NCBI GenBank assembly: GCA_029982165.1
Contig: JARRCN010000004.1
Location: 8,018 to 72,017 of the forward strand
Origin: Candidatus Methanomethylophilaceae archaeon
GTDB lineage: Archaea > Thermoplasmatota > Thermoplasmata > Methanomassiliicoccales > Methanomethylophilaceae
Reading direction: 5' to 3'
Length of the DNA stretch: 64,000 bases
The notes under the pieces were generated by a model, which saw nothing but the letters and a program-made list of their open reading frames with translations, did no database searches and was not told the DNA's origin. Shown here piece by piece: positions 2,712 to 50,269 of this stretch (position 1 is its first letter; each line of letters opens with the position of its first letter). A program made the position numbers and the translations under genes.

Positions 2712-3875
2712 TCACTTTCTTCCGCAGGTACATAGCGGCGGCAAGGAACGTAAGCGCTCCACTACCAAAGGTGTCTGCACCAATATATGATCTATCTGTT
2801 CCTCTGTGTTCTCTGCTCCAAGGGAGAATCTTATAGAGCCATGGGCAAGGCCGTTCGGTATTCCCATCGCCCGCAGCACATGAGATGCCTCCAAAGATCC
2901 TGTTGAACATGCCGAACCAGTCGATGTTTGTATACCACGATAGTCCAGCATCAGCACTGCCGATTCCCCCTCGATCCCTTCAAAGACAAATGAAGCCAGA
3001 CCGGGCAACCTTTCACACGGATGCCCGGTCAATACCGATCCATCGATTTTGATCACTCCGGCAATGAGGCGGTCTCTCATTTTGCGTAGTCTTTCCACTT
3101 TCTCATCAAGTCTATCGAGTGAGTCTTCGAGTGCAGCGGCCATAGCTAGGATTGCTGCTACATTCTCAGTCCCGGCGCGGCGTCCGCGTTCCTGACCTCC
3201 TCCGTGTATCAGCGGCGGGAGTTTCAATTCGCGTCTGATATACAGGGCACCGATGCCTTTGGGTCCCCCAAACTTATGGCCGGACATGCTGAGCATATCT
3301 ACACCGAGTTCATTGACATCCACTGAAAGGTGCCCAATGGCCTGAACAGCATCGGTGTGAAAAAGAGCACCGCCTTCTTTGGCTACAGAAGCCAACTCCT
3401 TAATCGGTTGAATGGTCCCAACTTCATTGTTGGCCATCATAACCGACACTAGGATGGTATCTTTTCTCATAGCCTCTTTGAGCGAATCCACAGAGACCTG
3501 CCCATTGGCATCTACTGGAAGGTAAGTGACTTCATAACCTCTTTCCTCCAGATATTTGCATGTTGACAATACGGCATGATGCTCGATCGATGAGGTTATT
3601 ACATGTTTACCTTTTTCTTTCATTAATTCCGCAGCGCTTTTGATGGCCCAGTTATCGGCCTCACTGCCATTACTGGTGAAGAATAACTCATTCTTTGTGG
3701 CGCCTATTGCGGAGGCTATTCCTGTACGGGCATCCTCCATTGCCATTCTGGCATTCTGGGATAGTGAATGCACTCCAGATGGATTGCCGTAATTGTCCCG
3801 CAGATAAGAGCACATCGTTTTAAAGGCAGACGAAGACATAGGAGTCGTAGCGGCATGATCAGCATAAACTTGCAT
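2712..3875 (-). CDS. Cysteine desulfurase (NifS/IscS class V aminotransferase)
   Basis: PLP-lysine motif SMSGHKFGGPKGIGALYIR and catalytic Cys loop STGSACSTGSLEASHVL. The whole 387 aa is collinear with NifS/IscS. Confidence 0.9.
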   Translation of the reverse strand: MQVYADHAATTPMSSSAFKTMCSYLRDNYGNPSGVHSLSQNARMAMEDARTGIASAIGATKNELFFTSNGSEADNWAIKSAAELMKEKGKHVITSSIEHHAVLSTCKYLEERGYEVTYLPVDANGQVSVDSLKEAMRKDTILVSVMMANNEVGTIQPIKELASVAKEGGALFHTDAVQAIGHLSVDVNELGVDMLSMSGHKFGGPKGIGALYIRRELKLPPLIHGGGQERGRRAGTENVAAILAMAAALEDSLDRLDEKVERLRKMRDRLIAGVIKIDGSVLTGHPCERLPGLASFVFEGIEGESAVLMLDYRGIQTSTGSACSTGSLEASHVLRAMGIPNGLAHGSIRFSLGAENTEEQIDHILVQTPLVVERLRSLPPLCTCGRK

Positions 3876-3968
3876 TATATGATACCCTCTTGGCCGCCTG
3901 AGCGGTTCTGATAGTCAGCTATAACAATAGTTAATCATAAAAAGTCTCTGTTATCTAGGAGAATGAGT

Positions 3969-4757
3969 TTATGATGACCTTGCCTCAGCGACTTTCCAAC
4001 CCACTGTATCCCGATCAACATCGATAAAATAAGGGAATACTATCAATTTCACGCTGTTCTCGGTACATTCCTTTAAAACGGTATCATCGATGGCCTTTAT
4101 CGACTCCAGTTCTTTGAGGCTTCCTGCTGCCCATGTCTCATAATGTTCTGGCCCACGATGCTCAATTGCAACGCTCATTGAAGGGAGAAAAGCCTGGAGA
4201 GGCCTAATACACCACGAAGGTTGGTATTCTGCCATGAGCTCCTCCTTTGGGTATAGTTCTCTTATGACCTTTAGCAAGTGCTCAGGCTCCACGGTGCTCT
4301 CTCCTCTGGGACGGAAGCCATATCGCTCTATTATGACGTCTGCAGCTTTTCTCCGGCACTCTTCAGCTGTTTTGAACCCGCCTCCATCGGCAATGAGTTC
4401 GATAGCTGTCTTTTCAATATAAGCACCATAACGGCGCTCAAACTCATCTGTCTCCATATCAGAAGTGTATATATGTGTAGAGGGGGCATCCCGGCAGAGT
4501 TCGCAAATCATTCCTTCGTACTCAATTCCTTCGAGCCTTTTCCTCATTTCTTCTACGGTTACACCATGGGCGGCTGCCATGCCCTCCACGTCAAAATCCC
4601 TACTGACACCTAATAAATTGGAGGCCTTTTCGATATTATCGATAGCCTTCTTGAAGCACTTACATATATAGAGGCGCTTACAAAGCTCGCACTCCCATAT
4701 GAGCTTCCATTCACCCTCTATATTGTTAAAGAGTCTATATCTGTGTCTGCAGGGCAT
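3969..4757 (-). CDS. Hypothetical Cys-rich protein with a C-terminal Vsr/DUF559-like (PD-(D/E)xK-fold) module
   Basis: N-terminal Cys clusters: CRH...WECELCKRLYICKC and ICELCRD. The C-terminal pattern GESTVEPEHLLKVIREL...SVAIEHRGPEHY...VKLIVFPY resembles the E..L / aIE.dG..H / ..vlrf signature of Vsr-like endonuclease domains. The acidic residues are partly substituted. Confidence 0.35.
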   Translation of the reverse strand: MPCRHRYRLFNNIEGEWKLIWECELCKRLYICKCFKKAIDNIEKASNLLGVSRDFDVEGMAAAHGVTVEEMRKRLEGIEYEGMICELCRDAPSTHIYTSDMETDEFERRYGAYIEKTAIELIADGGGFKTAEECRRKAADVIIERYGFRPRGESTVEPEHLLKVIRELYPKEELMAEYQPSWCIRPLQAFLPSMSVAIEHRGPEHYETWAAGSLKELESIKAIDDTVLKECTENSVKLIVFPYFIDVDRDTVGWKVAEARSS

Positions 4758-4941: not shown

Positions 4942-4961
4942 CTTATGAGTACTTATGAGTA
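4942..4961 (+). repeat. Perfect tandem 10-nt direct repeat (cttatgagta x2) just upstream of the longest ORF start at 4963
   Basis: Read directly: tCTTATGAGTACTTATGAGTAaatg. Confidence 0.6.
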
Positions 4962-5052
4962 AATGGTAGCTGATTGCTATTGGCCTGCAAATCGGTTGTT
5001 GACACCACCTTTGAGAACGCATTTTATATGGCAAATGGAATCACGCATTGGC

Positions 5053-6123
5053 ATGTCTCGATACACTGTGAACAATAACGACTTGCGTAATACATATTTA
5101 CTTGTAGGGGCTCTCACAGTGTTGCTGTTTATAGCCCTTTATACCCTATCCGCAACAGGGGGTATGGAACCATTGGAGCGGATTATCCTTACGATGCCAT
5201 GGGTCCTGTCCTCTGCATATCTCATATACAGTATAGTGGATGTGTACATTTGGAGGGCTTTTAGCCGCATGGGTCTATTTAAGACGCCATCTTTAAACGG
5301 TGTTTATTCTGGTAAGTGCTGGACATCAGACTCATCCTATAGCGAGTCGCATGATGTGACAGTAAACATACAACAATCGTTATCCGAAGTGTCCGTAGAA
5401 ATGGTCACCATAAAAGAAGGAAAGAAAGAGAGTTTTGAGAGTGTCACCGCTTCCATCATTAGCAGACCTTACAACTCGTATATTTACTACCCGTTTTCTT
5501 CCCCCTTTGGGAATGAGGATGAAATGAAACCGATTCATGAAGGATTCTGTGCATTGGAGTTTGATGGTGAAGGATATCACGTCAAAGGTCGGTATTTTAC
5601 TGACAATGGCGGAAAGATCGGTGACGGAGTCTTGAGTTTGGAACGTGCTGTGAAGACTGGAGATGCGAGCATTGCGGATGTGAATATCCCGAAAAGGGCG
5701 GTGCTCCGTCCCCCTATATCGCGGCCAGTCAAGAATAAGGAACGAAAAAAACTGGAAACATCAAGATCCTATTCTGAAAAGATACTCTTAGAGGACAAAC
5801 CCGAGCCTATATCAGAGACATACAGTCTTTTGCGGGAAAGGATCCTTGAGCTAGATGAGGATATAGAGATTTTACCCTTCAAACATCACCTGTCTTTCGT
5901 TGCTATGTCGCCCTTTGTTGACGTGCAGGTGCAGAAGACACAGATTAAGATATGGCTGAACATTAGCATTGGAGAGTTGGACGACCCGAAAGGCGCTGCA
6001 AGGGATGTATCTGATGTCAAGCATTGGGGTAACGGCGAGTATGAGGTAATAATCAAACCCGGAGACGACTTGGATTACGTTATGATGCTCATAAAACAAT
6101 CATATTGTCGGAACAACCTCTGA
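5053..6123 (+). CDS. Membrane protein: 2 TM helices + beta-strand-rich Cap15/S-2TMbeta-like domain + C-terminal DUF5655-like domain
   Basis: The longest ORF starts at 4963. A TATA-like TTTTATAT at 5023..5030 sits about 23 nt before the in-frame ATG at 5053, which suggests a leaderless start at MSRYTVNNN. TM1 is LLVGALTVLLFIALYTLSA and TM2 is WVLSSAYLIYSIVDVYIWRAF. The beta-rich block is LNGVYSGKCWTS...VTVNIQQSLSEVSVEMVT...SVTASII...HEGFCALEFDG...VKGRYFTDNGGKIGDGVLSLER. The C-terminus is LRERILELDEDIEILPFKHHLSFV...DVKHWGNGEYEVIIKPGDDLDYVMMLIKQSY. Confidence 0.6.
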   Translation: MSRYTVNNNDLRNTYLLVGALTVLLFIALYTLSATGGMEPLERIILTMPWVLSSAYLIYSIVDVYIWRAFSRMGLFKTPSLNGVYSGKCWTSDSSYSESHDVTVNIQQSLSEVSVEMVTIKEGKKESFESVTASIISRPYNSYIYYPFSSPFGNEDEMKPIHEGFCALEFDGEGYHVKGRYFTDNGGKIGDGVLSLERAVKTGDASIADVNIPKRAVLRPPISRPVKNKERKKLETSRSYSEKILLEDKPEPISETYSLLRERILELDEDIEILPFKHHLSFVAMSPFVDVQVQKTQIKIWLNISIGELDDPKGAARDVSDVKHWGNGEYEVIIKPGDDLDYVMMLIKQSYCRNNL

Positions 6124-17317: not shown

Positions 17318-17980
17318 ATGATAGAACTTGTTAATTATGCTTATGGGCGCGGATTCGATAGTTTTTTGTTGTTGCCCCTCGTTGCAGTGGTGGTGAGCAA
17401 CGTCGAAAAGGATCTAGAGGTATTCGTTTTAGATACGGAGACTACCGGTCTTGATGGATGGCCAAAAGATCATGTTGTGGATGTAGCTGTCTGCCGTGTT
17501 CTTCCCTTCCAAGGCATAGTTCAGCCAGTGATGTCTTCCATTGTGGGGCATGACACAACAAAATGGCCAAAGGAACAACAAGAGGCATGGATTTTTCAGA
17601 AAACCGATTTGACACTAGAGATGGTGCAGTCGGCTCCACCAGAGGACCAAATATCTAAAGAATTACAGTCCCTGCTGAGTGGCCGTATGGTCACAAGTTT
17701 CAATGTACAGTTTGATTTCGATAAGTTCCTATTTCACCCTCCTTGGTGCCTTAGGGAAATAGTGCACCTCACTCCATGCCTGATGTTGAGGTCGGCACCT
17801 ATCTGTAAATTACCTGGTCTTTATGATGACTATAAGTGGCCACGCCTTCAACAGGCATACGACATGATTGTTGGTGGAGATCCTGCTAAGATAGGTGGAG
17901 AACAAAAGCATCGCGCTCTGGAAGACGCTCTGATGGCCTCATATATACTCATCGAACTTGTAAGACGACAGCTCTATTGA
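17318..17980 (+). CDS. DEDD (DnaQ-like) 3'-5' exonuclease
   Basis: ExoI motif VFVLDTETTGLD, ExoII-like region NVQFDFDKF and ExoIII HRALEDALMASYILIEL. The true start is probably an internal GTG/ATG near 17390, because 17318 is only 3 nt from the divergent gene. Confidence 0.75.
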   Translation: MIELVNYAYGRGFDSFLLLPLVAVVVSNVEKDLEVFVLDTETTGLDGWPKDHVVDVAVCRVLPFQGIVQPVMSSIVGHDTTKWPKEQQEAWIFQKTDLTLEMVQSAPPEDQISKELQSLLSGRMVTSFNVQFDFDKFLFHPPWCLREIVHLTPCLMLRSAPICKLPGLYDDYKWPRLQQAYDMIVGGDPAKIGGEQKHRALEDALMASYILIELVRRQLY

Positions 17981-20554: not shown

Positions 20555-23383
20555 TCAGTTGCCCAGCATCTCTTTTGTACGGGCTTCTATGAATTCAATA
20601 GGTAACGGATCAAAGGGCACACTATTTCCCAACGTAAGGAAATGCACCCAACACTTGACAGGTTTACCGAGTGAAGATGCAGCATGCGCATATACTGAAA
20701 GCTGAAGTTTATACTCCTCTAGATTATCTTTGGAGATGTCAGTTTTCCAATCATGGATCTCGACATGATCTTCGAACTCAGCGAAGATATCCATCCTACC
20801 CTCTATCATGTATTCACTGATAGGCAGTATGCAGGGGAGCTCGGTTGTTATCCTGCTGCCTTTGAGAGAGCTCAGGACCTCCCGTACCATATCAAGTTCA
20901 GGAAAGTCATTCCATGGCGCCATGCCGTGTGCTATTCGCTCGGCGTCGGCATGGATCTTGATACCATATTCTCGGCCGAGACCCTTCTCGATGGGTATAT
21001 GCCTAAGGATCCTATGTACACCCACCTTTCTGCGGACCATCTCCCTTTCAGGCAACTCAGGGCGCAATGTTTTTTTCTGCTCTTCTTCACAGACTAAGGA
21101 CACTGGTGTGACACTCACCTCATCTATTTTACTGTCACTAAGCGAGCTTATAAAATGTGATGGTTTATGGCAGATCATGATTATGTGTTGCATGGCTCGC
21201 GATGTGGAGACATACATGAGGCGCCGCTCTTCGTCGTAGTCCCTGTCAACAAGATTGTGAACTAGTGCATACCTCCAATCCCTGTAGACCTTTGGAAAAG
21301 GATCCCCGATCATCATTTGGGTTAATCTGACGCCATATAATGTATCGAAGCGAAGTATCCCTCTATCACCTGCACGGGATGGCATCTCCCCCTCGTTCAG
21401 ACCGGCAATGATCACCGCAGGATACTCCAGCCCTTTCGAGCTATGCATCGTCTGTATACGGATAGCATTACGGCTGGAGATCATATCTGCAGGGTAGGGG
21501 TCCATATTTGTGATGCTGTCTTCTATCAGCGTTACCATTTCCGAAAGGCTGGAGAGAGTACCACTATACAGTTGTACTAATTGTGATGTGACCGCTTGGG
21601 CCATGTCGCTCCCCATTTGGTAGCGAGCAAATATCGACGTCAAGAGTCGGTTGGTATCTTTTTGAATATCATTAAGATAAGACAGATGATCGCTAATAGC
21701 TTGGGGAAGAGGCGCATTTTTTTCTGAGAAGCGAAGTATTTCCTCATGGCTGTATCCCTCTAAATCCATAACCGCTACTCTACCCCTCTCGTCATGAGGG
21801 TTCATTAGCAAACGTAACCATGCCAGGGCCGTCTTTCCCTCACGGCTACGAAATATGTCTAGATCCCCATCCATACGCAGAGGTATCCTTAGCTCCCTCG
21901 CTCTGCGCTCGATCATATGCAGGAGGTTCCTTCTTCTACTAAGCACTGCCACATCTCCATATGAGAGGGGTCGGTCTTCATATTTTCCATCATCTATCTG
22001 TTCCCGTACGGTCAGCCCAGATTGCACCATATGCTGAGCGGCCCAGAGCACCGCATCTACCTCCGCCGCCTGATCTTCGGCTTTTAGGTATCTTATTATG
22101 CTCATCTCATCCGGTATCTCCTTAACGGAACGGAGTCTGATGAGTTTGCTGCGGATGTATTCCTTTTTCTGGGGATCCATACCGTCGTTAGAAGCGGGAA
22201 GGCAGAGGGTTCTTTCGGAAAGGCGGATGACTTTATCGGAACTTCGGTAGTTGTCCACAAGACTCAGGTGTTTTATATCCGTCACCTGAAATCGGACCCT
22301 TTCTCCCAACGAATCAACCAATATACGGATGCGTTGGTCAAATTCCAAGAGGTTTTCTATATCTGCATATCGGAATCCATAGATCCCTTGTTTCCAGTCA
22401 CCTACAACACACAGATTGGGTTCATTGAGCACTAAGAGAGCTATCAGAAACTGCAATTCATTTGTATCCTGGAACTCATCTATCATGAGATAACGGTAAG
22501 ATTCCTCTTCACGTATACGGGGGTCTTTATAAAGAGAAAGGAACGCAAAAAAGGCAACCATCGCGAATGTGAGTCTGTTCTCTGATATCGCATGGCGAAG
22601 ATATTCCGTGAAAACGTGATGGAGAAAACGAAAGAGCTCGTCCCTATCCCCATCAATAGCCTCTTTGATGAGATTCTCGTCTATAAGAGGGCCCTCCAGC
22701 AAATCATAGAAATTTGGTAGCAGCTCCTTTTCACTCCTCATCTTTTTTGCTAGGGAGACCCTGCCATCATGGTTCATCGCCTTAGCCTTTTCCATCATGC
22801 CAGCGGCATCACCGTAGAGCAGATCCATACCGTGCCTGAACCATCCGCCAGGAACGGGACAGGTACCCAATGTAAGCAGCCTAGAGATAATATCTCTAAC
22901 GTCATCAGGGCGGTCCCATAACAACTGTGCGACATCACCATAGTTCTCTCCATAGGATTCCATAAAACGAGTGTAGAACTCTCTAAAGTCCCGTCTCTCC
23001 ATGGCTTCCGATTCCATCATCCCCACATGTCTAGAGAGTCGCTCTTCAAGTCCCAGGTATTCGTGTATGCGGGAGGTGTCGCGCAGAAGGATGCTATTGC
23101 AAAACGCATCAAAGGTTGATGCCCGCACCGAATTGAGGTCCACGTCTTCTATATTTCGCATATATAGTTCGTTAACTACCCGATCTCTCATTTCCTCAGC
23201 GGCGTTCTTCGTGAAGGTAAGGAGAAATATCTCAGAGGGATCCACACCACTAAGGATGATGTTTATGAAACGATTCGTTATTGTGTATGTCTTCCCAGTA
23301 CCGGGCCCAGCATCGACCACTATGATGCCGTTGAGTGTCTCAGATATTTCCTTCTGTTTTTCGTTCAGGCATCGATCGGTCAT
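20555..23383 (-). CDS. UvrD/PcrA-type SF1 helicase fused to a C-terminal PD-(D/E)xK nuclease (AddA-like)
   Basis: Helicase motifs: DAGPGTGKT (I), LMIDEFQDTNELQ (II), VGDWKQGIYGFRYAD (III), VDNYRSS (IV), TMHSSKGLEYPAVII (V), RRLMYVSTSRA (VI). Nuclease motif: GRMDIFAEF...VEIHDWKTD. Confidence 0.85.
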   Translation of the reverse strand: MTDRCLNEKQKEISETLNGIIVVDAGPGTGKTYTITNRFINIILSGVDPSEIFLLTFTKNAAEEMRDRVVNELYMRNIEDVDLNSVRASTFDAFCNSILLRDTSRIHEYLGLEERLSRHVGMMESEAMERRDFREFYTRFMESYGENYGDVAQLLWDRPDDVRDIISRLLTLGTCPVPGGWFRHGMDLLYGDAAGMMEKAKAMNHDGRVSLAKKMRSEKELLPNFYDLLEGPLIDENLIKEAIDGDRDELFRFLHHVFTEYLRHAISENRLTFAMVAFFAFLSLYKDPRIREEESYRYLMIDEFQDTNELQFLIALLVLNEPNLCVVGDWKQGIYGFRYADIENLLEFDQRIRILVDSLGERVRFQVTDIKHLSLVDNYRSSDKVIRLSERTLCLPASNDGMDPQKKEYIRSKLIRLRSVKEIPDEMSIIRYLKAEDQAAEVDAVLWAAQHMVQSGLTVREQIDDGKYEDRPLSYGDVAVLSRRRNLLHMIERRARELRIPLRMDGDLDIFRSREGKTALAWLRLLMNPHDERGRVAVMDLEGYSHEEILRFSEKNAPLPQAISDHLSYLNDIQKDTNRLLTSIFARYQMGSDMAQAVTSQLVQLYSGTLSSLSEMVTLIEDSITNMDPYPADMISSRNAIRIQTMHSSKGLEYPAVIIAGLNEGEMPSRAGDRGILRFDTLYGVRLTQMMIGDPFPKVYRDWRYALVHNLVDRDYDEERRLMYVSTSRAMQHIIMICHKPSHFISSLSDSKIDEVSVTPVSLVCEEEQKKTLRPELPEREMVRRKVGVHRILRHIPIEKGLGREYGIKIHADAERIAHGMAPWNDFPELDMVREVLSSLKGSRITTELPCILPISEYMIEGRMDIFAEFEDHVEIHDWKTDISKDNLEEYKLQLSVYAHAASSLGKPVKCWVHFLTLGNSVPFDPLPIEFIEARTKEMLGN

Positions 23384-26004
23384 TGGTACGCCTCCAAGCA
23401 GATGTCCAGATATTCGCAGTCCTTACATACACTTGGACTGCGTGGTTTTGCCTGGAATCCCTCACCGCTGTATTTCTCAAGATCATTAAGGGCTTCTTTG
23501 ACTACTAAGAGAAAACTATCCAACACATCAGGCATTATCGCTAAGGCATTCTTGTATGGTATAATGTCCTCACTCAACCCTTCAACGACTCTATTGAACA
23601 ACCTCTCAATAGGTTTCTTCTTTCTTGTCTTTCCGGCAAACATAACACTGAACTCTTCGTAGGCCTTTTCCTTCTCCATATCTCCCTTATCTGGAACTTC
23701 CCAGACCCTTATCTTGCGAAATGCCTCAAGAACAGTTTCTGATCCCACTTCATCTATCAGATCGATTTCGGATTTATTCATAGCATTTAGATATTCGTTT
23801 ATCCACGGATTTTTTGCGGTTACCAGGCCAGCCCGGTCGGTGCCTGTATATATAACGCTGACGCGATGTTTTTCTATATCGTATTCTGTATAGTCCGAAT
23901 CGACTGGTTTCATGTAATTATAATCCATTTGCAGACGTCTGCGCGGATCGCCTTCTGACCGTAAGAGGGCAAGGTACACCAATGGCTGGACGTCTATCTC
24001 GTCACCATCCCATACGCCCTTTATTCTTCTGATGGTTTCGTTCACAGACCGTTTCTTAGCGGTCTTATGGTCCACAATCAAATTCTCAGAAACTCGAAGG
24101 TCTATCCTGCCGTTCAGTCTCAGTTCTTCATTACGTGTGTCGAATTCCGTGTTGCCTATAGTAGGTTCAAGATCAAACGCTCTGAACAGTCTGTTATAAC
24201 CTTGCCTTCTGATCTGTAGGGGTTCGACATCGTAAGACTTCAGAAAATACTCGCAATTAATCATTAATTGATCCATCTTTGCTAGGACGCTGTTAAGGGC
24301 TTTGCGGCTGTTAAGGAATGAGAGGTCATTGCGGAACACCTCTAGACACTCCCTCCTGGTCTCAGGCCCTGACCGTGATGGATAGTGAACGAGAAGCTCT
24401 GCGTATTCGTGTGCCATATTCCCGATGGTCTTTATTATGTGCTCTGGTTCAGGTGTGAGAGATGAGAACTGATACATTTTGGGGCAGAGGAGCAGTTTGT
24501 TAAGCTTACTTTGGGATATGGTGTTTAGAGTTTGCGCACTCCCCCTTCTGCGCGGAAAGAGAGATTCAGACGGGTCATCTAACCATCTGCACTCTCTCAC
24601 TTCCTCTGCCACGTCTTCAAAGTCCAGCACTGGCCGGGCTTCACTGCGATTGAAATAGATACAAGGTAGCACTTTACGCCCTTTGGATACTTTGCTTATC
24701 ATATAGAGGCGTTCCTCTCCCTGCTGGAGCAATATTTCGAAACGGGTAACTTCCTTTCCCAAAACCTCCTCAGAATCAATGTGGCGGCGGCGGGGGATGT
24801 GTTTCGCCCACTCCCTTCCTATACCAACATGGAAAACTATAGGCCGGTCTACATATGTGGATGACTTACAATCCACCAAAACGACGCCCTCGTCCTCTTC
24901 CTCGCTCATGATATCATCGCTAAGATTATCTATCGCGTAAGCGAGAGTGTCAAGCGTTCTCGGTGTCAGAGGGCTTTCGGTCATACCCAATTGTTTGAGC
25001 AGTTCGACAGCATATACCATCTCCTCATCACCCAGCAATGACATGCATGCCTGGAGCAAGGTCCCTGAAGATATCTTATGAATGTATTCCAACAGGGAAG
25101 TCAGTTCCTTGTCATTACCGCTTTCTGCTCTTCGAATAAAAAAGTGATGGTCGTATTTTGCATCGAATGATGTCGGACTTATCTCTAGATCCTTTAACTG
25201 CACACTCTTGAGCATTCTTTTCAAATCGGACATTTTAGCGGTTTCTATACCCAAACAGAAATCAAGGAACTTGAGAAGGCTTCTTATTCCCGGCATGTCG
25301 CGCATGAAGTGCTGCGATGTGAAAGATATGCATTTTTGATAAAGCGCAGACTTTACGGCCTCAAGTATTGAGCCCTCCGTATCAAGGACCACAGCTGTAG
25401 AATTGAGATTTTTTTGGTCTATAAGGTCTGCTATATGGCGGCCAATGAGCCTTTCATTTCCCATATCCATCATGAGCGGTATCTGGTATATTCCATCGTG
25501 ATAAGGCAACACCTCTCGAAAGGAACCAGGTGGCGGCAGAACATGTTTATCCAGCTCATCAAAGAGATCAAGGGCTACCACAACAACATCGATTCCTTCG
25601 AAAAAATCCAATGGGAAACGTTCCATAGCCCTCTCTACACTGGGAATTCTGCGATAGGCTTTCCAAACAAGTTCCGAATCACGTGTGTCAAGATATTTTT
25701 CAACTTGAGATGTCTCGCGGCGTATTTCTTTTATGTTCTCTATCTCACCATGAACGTATGGAATCTCTAATCCTGTGGCTTCGGAGACCTCCGCAACTAT
25801 CTTAGCCTCTGGCCACACCTCTTCCCCGAGCACTTCCAGGGCCATTCGTGAGGCCAATTCTCTGGGCGTGACGGCCAGTTTACCAATCATAGGACGATCG
25901 GCGAGACGGTTCAGAGCAGTAGCCAGAGGGGCTTGGTTGGTTATGACGAGGTCAGCCTCACCAATCTCAACAAATATCTCTTCGATGGACTTCGCTTTTT
26001 TCAT
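23380..26004 (-). CDS. AddB-like inactivated-helicase scaffold with a Cas4/AddB-type Fe-S PD-(D/E)xK nuclease
   Basis: There is no Walker A. The C-terminal nuclease core is GRIDLRV...LIVDHKTAKK, bracketed by a distal Cys (LLCPKMYQF) and C-x2-C-x5-C (CKDCEYLDIC). 4-nt overlap with the AddA-like gene. Confidence 0.75.
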   Translation of the reverse strand: MKKAKSIEEIFVEIGEADLVITNQAPLATALNRLADRPMIGKLAVTPRELASRMALEVLGEEVWPEAKIVAEVSEATGLEIPYVHGEIENIKEIRRETSQVEKYLDTRDSELVWKAYRRIPSVERAMERFPLDFFEGIDVVVVALDLFDELDKHVLPPPGSFREVLPYHDGIYQIPLMMDMGNERLIGRHIADLIDQKNLNSTAVVLDTEGSILEAVKSALYQKCISFTSQHFMRDMPGIRSLLKFLDFCLGIETAKMSDLKRMLKSVQLKDLEISPTSFDAKYDHHFFIRRAESGNDKELTSLLEYIHKISSGTLLQACMSLLGDEEMVYAVELLKQLGMTESPLTPRTLDTLAYAIDNLSDDIMSEEEDEGVVLVDCKSSTYVDRPIVFHVGIGREWAKHIPRRRHIDSEEVLGKEVTRFEILLQQGEERLYMISKVSKGRKVLPCIYFNRSEARPVLDFEDVAEEVRECRWLDDPSESLFPRRRGSAQTLNTISQSKLNKLLLCPKMYQFSSLTPEPEHIIKTIGNMAHEYAELLVHYPSRSGPETRRECLEVFRNDLSFLNSRKALNSVLAKMDQLMINCEYFLKSYDVEPLQIRRQGYNRLFRAFDLEPTIGNTEFDTRNEELRLNGRIDLRVSENLIVDHKTAKKRSVNETIRRIKGVWDGDEIDVQPLVYLALLRSEGDPRRRLQMDYNYMKPVDSDYTEYDIEKHRVSVIYTGTDRAGLVTAKNPWINEYLNAMNKSEIDLIDEVGSETVLEAFRKIRVWEVPDKGDMEKEKAYEEFSVMFAGKTRKKKPIERLFNRVVEGLSEDIIPYKNALAIMPDVLDSFLLVVKEALNDLEKYSGEGFQAKPRSPSVCKDCEYLDICLEAYQ

Positions 26005-30066: not shown

Positions 30067-30921
30067 TTATTGCCATATTTCTATGTCTATTGAGCGGCCC
30101 CACTCCATCATGTCTTTATAGAGTTTCGTTGTTTTGAAATCGTCTGCAGTGTATGCAAGCCTCAGGATGCCGGCCAGCATCCCCCTTCCTAGTGTGCGGG
30201 CGTTGTAAAGTCCTATTGTCTCATGGAGGGCGATGAGGAGGATGGCTACCATATCATGTCCCCTGCATATGACCCAAGGATCGTGTCCTTTGCTGATTTC
30301 TGCTTTTATTTCCCTTACCAGCGTTTTTGGGTTAGCGCAATGGTGATCTGAGGAGATGCATAACGATTCCACCATCCTTTGGATATCCGTGCATAGTCTC
30401 ACAGGGTCAACGAAACTGTGGTGGTCTATCTCTTTGAATGAGAGATTATAACCGTTACGCAGGGATATAAACATCAGTGTTCCTAAGGGAATGGTGGCAT
30501 TCAGCAGTGCTTCTCTGACCGTCATGCCTGTCCTTTTCTCAAAAAGGGCTATTTCATCTCTGTCACCGTATTCCCATAAGACAGCATCAAGAGCTGATGA
30601 GCGTATCAACAAGGTCTCCAGATCATGACAGTCAGTCATAAAGAGATTCTCCTCCACTTCTTTCCCCAGAAGAAGGTCATAATCCTGGTCTATAATGCCA
30701 GTTGTGAGGGAGTCGCCCCTCACTTCTCTCATCTCTTTTACCGCTATACGCACATTGTCTTTAGAATGGGCTATAACCATTTGGCATTCGGCAGGATTAC
30801 TGAATTTGCCGTAGAGTCGAAAATCAGTGACTCCTTCTACCACCACAAAGAGCCCTTTGAACTTAGACCTACGCATTCCCATTTCATTGGCTATTTCGAA
30901 TGATTGTATGTAGCGACGCAA
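30067..30921 (-). CDS. DUF4435-type Toprim (OLD-like) nuclease domain protein, AriB-like
   Basis: Toprim Glu in FVVVEGVTDFRLYGKF and a DxD-type motif in GIIDQDYDLLLG. It follows the ATPase gene with a 1-nt gap. Confidence 0.65.
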   Translation of the reverse strand: MRRYIQSFEIANEMGMRRSKFKGLFVVVEGVTDFRLYGKFSNPAECQMVIAHSKDNVRIAVKEMREVRGDSLTTGIIDQDYDLLLGKEVEENLFMTDCHDLETLLIRSSALDAVLWEYGDRDEIALFEKRTGMTVREALLNATIPLGTLMFISLRNGYNLSFKEIDHHSFVDPVRLCTDIQRMVESLCISSDHHCANPKTLVREIKAEISKGHDPWVICRGHDMVAILLIALHETIGLYNARTLGRGMLAGILRLAYTADDFKTTKLYKDMMEWGRSIDIEIWQ

Positions 30922-30922
30922 A

Positions 30923-31954
30923 TCAGATCACCAATTCCACAGTGAGATCCCATTTGTCATGTACTACCTGTGGGGAGTGGGTGGCCATTAGAACCTGGAT
31001 GTCACGTGCCTCGCATATCTCCATAAAAAGTGATGCCAGACGTTGTTGCCAAGTTATATGCATGGAAATCTCCGGCTCGTCTATAATCACCAGGCTTCCA
31101 GGACTGGCTACAAAGACCATCGTGTAGAGCATCAAGAGTAAATGCCTCTCTCCAGATGACAATCTTTCCAGTGGAATGTTCTTGCCATCATCGAAGAAGA
31201 CAGAGAGACCCTCCTCTGCGTTGATAATCAGCTTCTTGCGGAAGAGCATGGGGTTTACAATATCTTGAAGAGTGACTATTTCCTCCGCAAGAGGATAGAG
31301 CACGTCCGCCACACAGATAAGTTTGTGAAGTGTCAGAAGCTTTTTTTCGTCCCAGACCATAGCATCGTTCTCAACCAAATCTCTCAGGATCTCTTCCAGA
31401 ACGGATGGTAAGATTCCGGCATTCTGGATCATTGCCATCTTAGCCTTCAGTTCTGCGAGATGACTTTTAGGGTCCTTTCTTATCTCTTCAGGAATCTTTT
31501 CACACTCTGTCCATCTTTCAAGTGCAAAGGCCTGCTGTTTTTTTATTCTCTCCGACACATCCTCCGCATAGATCTTTAATGTGGATGAGAAATAGCCACC
31601 CTCCTCCTCCTTAAAAAGTCTCTGCGGGCCCAGATACACCACGTTTGTAATTGACTTGACCTCAGTTTTGTCCACTTGAATAATATCTCCGGCATCCAGA
31701 AGTGTGACCTCTAGTGTCTCTTTTTTCAGGAATATCAATCTTCTACCCTCCTCGAAACCGAATTCTAGGCGTTCGAAGGGTATATGATTCAGCTCATCCC
31801 AGCAGCCAGTAAAGGCTAAGAATATCATTTTCATCATGGTACTTTTGCCCAGACCGTTGGGTGAATGAATGATGGTAAGTCCTTCTTCCTTGAGCTCTAT
31901 GGTATGGTTGAACGTGTCGTATAAAGAATTCACTTTTATCCAGCGGAGTTTCAT
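30923..31954 (-). CDS. ABC/SMC-like ATPase (AAA_15/AAA_21 type), AriA-like but compact
   Basis: Walker A HSPNGLGKSTMMK, ABC signature LSSGERHLLLML, Walker B/D-loop LVIIDEPEISMH and H-loop LMATHSPQV. There is a roughly 200-aa helical insert between Walker A and the signature. Confidence 0.75.
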   Translation of the reverse strand: MKLRWIKVNSLYDTFNHTIELKEEGLTIIHSPNGLGKSTMMKMIFLAFTGCWDELNHIPFERLEFGFEEGRRLIFLKKETLEVTLLDAGDIIQVDKTEVKSITNVVYLGPQRLFKEEEGGYFSSTLKIYAEDVSERIKKQQAFALERWTECEKIPEEIRKDPKSHLAELKAKMAMIQNAGILPSVLEEILRDLVENDAMVWDEKKLLTLHKLICVADVLYPLAEEIVTLQDIVNPMLFRKKLIINAEEGLSVFFDDGKNIPLERLSSGERHLLLMLYTMVFVASPGSLVIIDEPEISMHITWQQRLASLFMEICEARDIQVLMATHSPQVVHDKWDLTVELVI

Positions 31955-49954: not shown

Positions 49955-50269
49955 TGCTAGGCTTGACCGGGATGCTCGGCGTATCCTTGTATACCGAAAT
50001 CGTCGATATGCGGAGGTGACAGCGGAGGACGACGCGGCTCTAACCTGGAGGCCTGGTATCACAACAATGAGACCCTGTCCACCGGGGTAGGTGTGAGTGG
50101 CTGTGTTCGATCGGAGGATCGTTACCACCACTCTAATTGCGGGGACTGGGCCAGGCCCTGACGGGAGCAGCCTTACCGCAAACTACCGACGCTCGGAGGG
50201 TAGCGGGGTTGAGAAGTGATACCAGATACCTCTTGGCCAAGAGCGCGGCAACCTCCGTGGCCTAGCACC
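49955..50269 (+). ncRNA. Archaeal signal recognition particle RNA (7S/SRP RNA)
   Basis: About 315 nt. The 5' tgctaggc pairs with the 3' gcctagca. The domain IV-like conserved segment is GGGCCAGGCCCUGACGGGAGCAGCC, and the sequence is GC-rich and highly self-complementary (ggtgagtggctgtg... / ...cgctcggagggtagcgggg). Only a spurious antisense ORF overlaps it. Confidence 0.85.

Follow-up and report, generated by a model that had tools for sequence, protein, structure and literature searches.

The membrane effectors Cap15, OptE and PanE have been described so far as operon partners of a CD-NTase, of mCpol or of a minimal diadenylate cyclase (DAC). What such a module does where no nucleotide synthase lies beside it is the question raised by a gene on a 64,000-nucleotide stretch of DNA, hereafter called the window, from Candidatus Methanomethylophilaceae archaeon (contig JARRCN010000004.1, positions 8,018 to 72,017). 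The gene encodes an archaeal membrane effector of the Cap15 type that has no cyclase partner beside it and is joined to DUF5655, a defence-associated domain with a putative role in recognition. The combination of Cap15 and DUF5655 was not described in the literature searched. An earlier note, made from the letters of the window without database searches, had proposed an orphan effector of this composition, and the analysis reported here followed it up.

The fusion gene and its modules

The maximal open reading frame (ORF), at 4963..6123 (+), is present and corresponds to 386 amino acids. In the alignment, the first residue of each of the five non-identical homologues falls on the ATG at 5053 (M[SV]RYTVNN...) and the extension from 4963 is not conserved, so that the true product has 356 amino acids and starts at ATG 5053, as had been proposed before. 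The protein is named hypothetical, or has no name, in all database sources, and its NCBI label is hypothetical protein of Candidatus Methanomethylophilaceae archaeon. The gene and its modules are as follows.

5053..6123, + strand: coding sequence of the fusion of two transmembrane (TM) helices, a Cap15-like barrel and DUF5655 (356 aa, stop codon included)
5053..5097, + strand: N-terminal tail, predicted to be cytoplasmic, aa 1-15 (MSRYTVNNNDLRNTY), nearly invariant among orthologues
5098..5250, + strand: two TM helices, about aa 16-35 and 45-66, with a short, presumably outside loop between them (hydropathy, AlphaFold2, PADLOC)
5278..5643, + strand: Cap15-type beta-barrel, aa 76-197 (PF18153, PDB profile match, Foldseek)
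5650..5787, + strand: basic, disordered and fast-evolving linker, aa 200-245 (composition, model confidence, substitution rate)
5788..6105, + strand: DUF5655 domain, aa 246-351, an alpha+beta sandwich (PF18899, PADLOC PDC-S18, AlphaFold2)

Membrane helices and Cap15-type barrel

The two N-terminal hydrophobic helices described in the earlier note were found both by a hydropathy scan, as segments at about aa 16-35 and 45-66, and in the AlphaFold2 (AF2) model, as helices 9-35 and 40-72. From the flanking charges and the positive-inside rule, both termini would be cytoplasmic. The tail of aa 1-15 is more conserved than the TM helices, with columns M1, R3-N8 and D10-Y15 invariant in the orthologue alignment (M-x-RYTVNN-x-DLRNTY), although the orthologues are only about 55% identical overall. 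This conservation could reflect a gating or oligomerisation element, or a constraint that leaderless translation puts on the start of the mRNA.

The beta-rich block, assigned previously to the Cap15/S-2TMbeta family, matches PF18153 (Cap15_CD_rec) with its residues 76-197, which span positions 1-121 of the 122 in the profile; the match has E=2.1e-15 and 57.6 bits, above the gathering cut-off of 31.2. The PADLOC models of the "2TM effector" of the cyclic-oligonucleotide-based antiphage signalling system (CBASS) cover aa 1-199, with E down to 2.9e-20; because these models span both parts, the TM helices and the barrel together are homologous to Cap15-type effectors. When the profile of the six orthologues was compared with PDB sequences, Cap15 (7N34) was matched at E=2.4e-5. 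The same structure was the best PDB match of the AF2 model in Foldseek (E=6.9e-6, TM-score 0.81 normalised to the target, root-mean-square deviation 2.4 A over 124 columns), so that the structural comparison which the earlier note had suggested agrees with the profile match. The mean predicted local distance difference test score (pLDDT) of the full-length model was 77, and the blocks of the barrel scored 61-84, about 75 on average.

None of the six orthologues varies in two segments of the barrel, H162-x-G-F and G179-R-Y-F-T183. In alignments these segments coincide with the one that binds nucleotide in Cap15 and OptE (consensus xGxYxTxR, GRYYTDR in OptE), a likeness that applies to the segment as a whole; counterparts of the single residues T129, Y153, Y155, Y188 and M200 of EaCap15 are putative. 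Since TM topology, PF18153 profile and barrel fold all agree with the S-2TMbeta family, the first 200 residues are, as judged from sequence and model, a complete module of the Cap15/OptE/PanE type.

Linker and DUF5655 domain

The Lys/Arg-rich linker noticed earlier has 12 K+R against 5 D+E in aa 200-245, and pLDDT falls below 50 at aa 212-237. Between distant orthologues the rate of nonsynonymous substitution (dN) in the linker is about 1, with insertions and deletions.

The C-terminal module, which had been called DUF5655-like, matches PF18899 (DUF5655) at aa 246-351, over profile positions 5-106 of 109, with E=1.3e-10 and 41.7 bits, again above the gathering cut-off (24). The PADLOC model of the single-gene defence candidate PDC-S18 also matches (E=8.5e-35), with its profile positions 176-301 of 302 falling on aa 227-351. 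Modelled alone by AF2, the domain reached a pLDDT of 94.8. Its profile gave no match to PDB sequences, and its fold neighbours in the PDB were weak, namely YdhG-like/DUF1801 and YjbR proteins at E of about 1e-2 and TM-scores of 0.57-0.63. DUF5655 is the most conserved part of the fusion: it is 62-70% identical between orthologues in which the linkers no longer resemble each other, and it shares the motifs ARDVS..GHWGxGxYE and LIKQSY with 21 bacterial and archaeal DUF5655 proteins.

DUF5655 in other proteins

DUF5655 is hardly mentioned in the literature searched, and PDC-S18 is not mentioned there. Pfam scans of twenty DUF5655 proteins showed the domain at the C-terminal end, behind GmrSD_N (alone or together with GmrSD_C), HNH, HEPN_Swt1, AAA_15/AAA_21 (OLD-type ATPase proteins), AIPR, T5orf172/MUG113, TIR_2 and PD-(D/E)XK modules of the HSDR_N_2 type. 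Some of the twenty carry two or three copies of DUF5655 in tandem. Closest to the archaeal domain are DUF5655 proteins of about 305 aa, 42-57% identical to it over the aligned C-terminal 125 residues, which have an N-terminal nuclease-like D...ExK motif and a weak HSDR_N_2 match.

On the Acinetobacter baumannii plasmid pRBH2-4 (NZ_CP110466.1, locus L028, 5192..10259), a 303-aa DUF5655 gene lies between hsdS and hsdR in a type I restriction-modification operon. By tblastn, matches were obtained on plasmids of 15 Acinetobacter records, and 14 of the matches listed carry the annotation DUF5655 domain-containing; of these plasmids, pRBH2-4 is the one on which gene order was examined. The position between hsdS and hsdR is reminiscent of the anticodon nuclease PrrC inside EcoprrI. 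In Methanobrevibacter smithii U29, a strain-specific DUF5655 gene of 915 bp, the size of the genes for the proteins of about 305 aa, adjoins a BREX cluster (PMC12487256).

Three further proteins (P0095, P0117 and P0141; 167-251 aa) carry DUF5655 immediately behind one to several TM helices, without a barrel; membrane-anchored DUF5655 is thus recurrent outside this archaeal clade. The statement of the earlier note that DUF5655 is usually appended to nucleases or defence-associated proteins therefore holds by the Pfam scans and by the Acinetobacter operon. In terms of sequence, DUF5655 is a promiscuous C-terminal add-on of restriction and abortive-infection enzymes. The fold matches to frataxin-like proteins had also raised the candidate role of an iron domain tied to the nearby nifS; this was rejected, as the matches are weak and the other contexts of the domain are restriction and defence, and it survives only within the housekeeping alternative considered below.

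Proposed mode of action

The modules could together form a single-polypeptide, membrane-disrupting defence protein in which DUF5655 recognises and the 2TM-barrel kills. This is the reading we prefer, tentatively and at somewhat less than an even chance. DUF5655 would be a non-catalytic recognition module, the ligand of which would most plausibly be nucleic acid, or else some other feature by which an invader or a restriction system is marked. Engagement of the ligand would cluster the membrane-anchored protomers; oligomerisation of the barrels would follow, and the TM helices would make the cytoplasmic membrane permeable, as in Cap15, OptE and PanE. The infected cell would be killed or arrested, and virus production would be halted. 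With the GxYxT segment kept, a nucleotide may be a second input to the barrel, either activating or restraining it.

For the effector half, the mode of action is grounded by homology, because experiments exist for Cap15, OptE and PanE. In Cap15, binding of a cyclic dinucleotide leads to oligomerisation and disruption of the inner membrane, and in the systems of OptE and PanE the 2TM-beta module kills without a synthase signal induced by infection (PMC12657218, PMC12657230, PMC13640721). For DUF5655, recognition is the most likely role because the domain appears to be non-catalytic, is fused to DNA-targeting and suicide effectors, and is the most constrained part of the protein.

Several points weigh against the preferred reading. 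The kept nucleotide-binding segment of the barrel may mean that a nucleotide signal is the primary control. Nucleic-acid binding by DUF5655 is a guess, as its fold matches are weak (E of about 1e-2). The gene is in no defence island, but at a syntenic site among nifS, corrinoid/methyltransferase and F430/haem genes, and the three PDC-S18-like genes that were examined stand alone among housekeeping genes.

A wider generalisation appears doubtful at present: DUF5655 would be a widespread invader-recognition domain that gates nucleases, TIR, HEPN and membrane disruptors, and would here replace the cyclase arm of CBASS, giving a one-protein sensor and killer without nucleotide signalling. With a threshold of E<=0.001 the query had matches in at least 1,829 representative clusters, some of which may match through Cap15 only.

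Search for a nucleotide synthase

The Pfam records of the called genes, which cover almost the whole window, include no SMODS/CD-NTase, mCpol, DAC, SAVED, CARF or Cas10. The remaining ORFs were scanned directly, and the ORFs without a Pfam match gave no PADLOC match either, to a cyclase or otherwise. Nor was SMODS, mCpol, DAC (DisA_N), SAVED or CARF present within ±10 kb of the gene in two orthologous contexts with gene calls, from metagenome-assembled genomes (MAGs) of soda lakes. The absence of a cyclase partner, reported before for the 64 kb, thus stands and extends to these two contexts. The small ORFs that flank the fusion gene are not conserved between loci.

The effector might nevertheless be controlled by a nucleotide made in trans, the barrel being the primary sensor and DUF5655 an auxiliary input or a localisation module. 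In a CBASS-like version, a cyclic nucleotide from a CD-NTase or from the Cas10 of a type III CRISPR system elsewhere would activate it; in a version like Panoptes or PanDA, the cell's own constitutive pool of cyclic di-AMP (c-di-AMP) would restrain it until depletion by a viral sponge released it. OptE (Panoptes) and PanE (PanDA) are precedents for the latter, since they are off under constitutive c-di-AMP isomers and fire when a phage sponge takes the ligand (PMC12657218, PMC12657230, PMC13640721). Their repression by c-di-AMP isomers (PMC12657218, PMC13640721), the barrel that spans the whole PF18153 profile and the invariant H-x-G-F and G-R-Y-F-T segments, which align with the part of Cap15 and OptE that binds nucleotide, all speak for control in trans. 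Against it stand the lack of a synthase gene in the 64 kb and around the two orthologues, the description of the known 2TM-beta effectors as operonic with their synthase, and the strongest conservation of the protein, that of DUF5655, which it leaves unexplained. This is the chief alternative to the preferred reading, and we consider it rather unlikely as the main form of control. A trigger in DUF5655 and a barrel that acts as sensor are not mutually exclusive.

Distribution, synteny and selection

A HMMER profile search of 1.84 billion representatives found a single cluster at 50% identity with the full Cap15 and DUF5655 architecture (726 bits). All others among the best 150 matches covered the linker/DUF5655 part only, none showing the Cap15 barrel. 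The members of the fusion cluster are all from Methanomassiliicoccales MAGs. The fusion is found in 3 of 185,579 GTDB species representatives, the MAGs being labelled Methanomassiliicoccaceae or Methanomethylophilaceae, and it is therefore lineage-specific rather than a core gene. No relative of it is encoded on IMG/VR viral contigs, and a provirus or virus as its source was rejected on this ground.

The gene order is cobW, URO-D, nifS, a protein of 225-302 aa without known function and then the fusion, with up to three genes intervening in the soda-lake genomes. The five homologues are 52-55% identical to the fusion over the full length. Set beside its neighbour, the fusion is 53-55% identical and NifS 68-70% identical between orthologues, which is consistent with vertical descent. 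The ratio of nonsynonymous to synonymous substitution rates (dN/dS) is 0.08-0.21 for the TM helices, the barrel and DUF5655, where dS is not saturated, showing purifying selection; for the linker it is 0.09-0.43, mostly 0.24-0.43. The lowest dN is that of DUF5655. With these values in the folded modules and a conserved promoter (see below), the gene is functional.

Such conservation beside nifS (and nifU) also agrees with a housekeeping function, in which the protein would be a membrane-tethered sensor or regulator outside defence, for example of nucleotide or iron/Fe-S status, reusing the Cap15 and DUF5655 folds. The stable syntenic site, the divergence expected of vertical descent, the purifying selection on all modules and the absence from viral contigs are in its favour, and the best fold matches of DUF5655 include YdhG-like "frataxin" proteins. 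Those frataxin-like matches are, however, weak (E of about 1e-2), both domains are otherwise known only in defence or candidate-defence contexts, and a gene in so few species representatives, with one 50% cluster in the whole search, does not belong to the core genes of the order. A housekeeping role is accordingly judged improbable. The earlier note had named a uniformly conserved core gene in a housekeeping context as a finding that would speak against its proposal; the result comes part of the way towards this, since the gene has descended vertically at a syntenic site among housekeeping genes, but it is not core.

It is still less credible that the gene is a decaying relic of a CBASS operon after loss of the cyclase, with the fusion a functionless read-through; this we regard as highly improbable. 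An orphan effector without a nearby cyclase is what such decay would leave, and in one metagenomic contig a frameshift in the linker splits the two halves. In all other loci the ORF is intact, dN/dS is low in each folded module, DUF5655 has remained 62-70% identical despite the divergence of the linker, and the promoter is conserved.

The split orthologue (L019) lies at 2862..3964 (-) of the soda-lake contig SL_3KL_010_SEDDRAFT_10005291, with the Cap15-like half and DUF5655 in different frames. The frameshift could be a sequencing error, a natural split or a pseudogene.

Comparison with known systems

Cap15, represented by the Yersinia aleksiciae barrel (7N34), shares with the fusion the two N-terminal TM helices and the cytoplasmic PF18153 barrel. 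The fusion is about 22% identical to it and differs in its archaeal host, in having no CD-NTase as operon partner, and in 150 extra residues, the basic linker and DUF5655; ligand binding by its barrel is putative. The 2TM-plus-barrel architecture is likewise common to the fusion, OptE and PanE, and GRYFTD in the last hairpin of the fusion is close to GRYYTDR of OptE. There is no adjacent mCpol or minimal DAC gene at the fusion locus, whereas OptE and PanE lack DUF5655. As an adjacent synthase is absent, the gene does not belong to CBASS, Panoptes or PanDA as these are defined.

With PDC-S18 and the DUF5655 proteins of about 305 aa, the fusion shares the C-terminal part and the organisation as a single gene. 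The N-terminus is nuclease-like (D...ExK) in those proteins and a 2TM-barrel in the fusion. As the match of the fusion to the PDC-S18 profile is confined to its C-terminal third, the fusion does not count as a PDC-S18 protein. Other DUF5655 fusions have the same layout, in which DUF5655 at the C-terminus follows a different enzymatic or membrane module.

This gene casts doubt on the pairing with a nucleotide synthase in which 2TM-beta effectors have been described. The absence of a nearby signal-making enzyme suggests that there may be a new way of triggering the killing module. An intact copy that is under selection, has its own promoter, lacks a synthase and is fused to a defence-associated domain would be evidence that another trigger can be coupled to the killing module; or else the module may respond to a signal produced in trans, perhaps a nucleotide of housekeeping origin. 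The fusion is also an entry point to the function of DUF5655, and it adds a candidate immune gene for Methanomassiliicoccales, the antiviral systems of which have been little studied.

Promoter and upstream region

The divergent intergenic region upstream of the gene contains two features.

5016..5029, + strand: TFB recognition element (BRE)/TATA element AACGCATTTTATAT, with its end 23 nt upstream of the ATG
4942..4961, no strand assigned: perfect 10-nt tandem repeat (CTTATGAGTA twice), about 55 nt upstream of the BRE/TATA element

In four orthologous loci the AAC..ATTTTATA core of the BRE/TATA element is invariant and at a fixed distance to the ATG, and the rest of the intergenic DNA around it is not conserved. 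The TATA-like box and leaderless start suggested in the earlier note are supported by this, and the position of the element implies a leaderless or near-leaderless mRNA. A scan for sigma-70 promoters and terminators gave nothing above the shuffled expectation, the sigma-70 method not being applicable to archaea.

The tandem repeat, also reported before, is real and is the sole perfect 10-nt tandem duplication in the 64 kb, 0.08 being expected in shuffled sequences. It is present in all conspecific contigs and absent from the orthologous loci of other species. On this ground it was rejected as a regulatory element; it is probably incidental or specific to the species.

Other genes of the window

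The gene divergent from the fusion, a syntenic neighbour, was considered as a partner.

3969..4757, - strand: 262-aa Cys-rich protein (CRHRYRLFN...WEC..C...C.C), divergent from the fusion gene

The protein has no match in Pfam, PADLOC or the PDB, and was on these grounds discarded as a partner enzyme. Among PHROGs it matches phage families without assigned function (best E=4e-10) and, weakly, an "intron encoded nuclease" (E=0.0085). A C-terminus like DUF559/Vsr, considered because a DUF559 gene stands beside a PDC-S18-like gene in another locus (L025), was likewise dismissed, with an hhalign probability of 0.1%. The homologues found for it, with 41-50% identity, all belong to this archaeal clade, and in every locus that shows both positions a homologue (47-49% identical) is close to the fusion gene. 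Because both genes are restricted to the clade, this co-occurrence is no proof of a functional link. MarC was also set aside as an operon partner, since it is downstream of the fusion in the window and not in other species.

A PARIS-like pair lies at 30067..31954 (-), 25 kb from the fusion gene, and consists of a 343-aa AAA_15/AAA_21 ATPase (PADLOC AriA, E=5e-26) and a 284-aa DUF4435 protein (PADLOC AriB, E=2.7e-17). At least one defence system can thus be recognised in the window. An AddAB-like pair at 20555..26004 (-) is made up of a 942-aa UvrD-family helicase, which also matches GajB and DRT helicase models, and an 874-aa PDDEXK_1 nuclease, and a 220-aa DEDDh/RNase_T exonuclease is encoded at 17318..17980. 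Other genes include those of a methyl-corrinoid pathway, nifS, MarC, UbiA, MMPL, a P-type ATPase, Trk potassium-uptake genes, MtrA/MtrH and NrdD. The RNA of an archaeal signal recognition particle at 49955..50267 (+) (Rfam RF01857, 187 bits) confirms the archaeal origin of the window.

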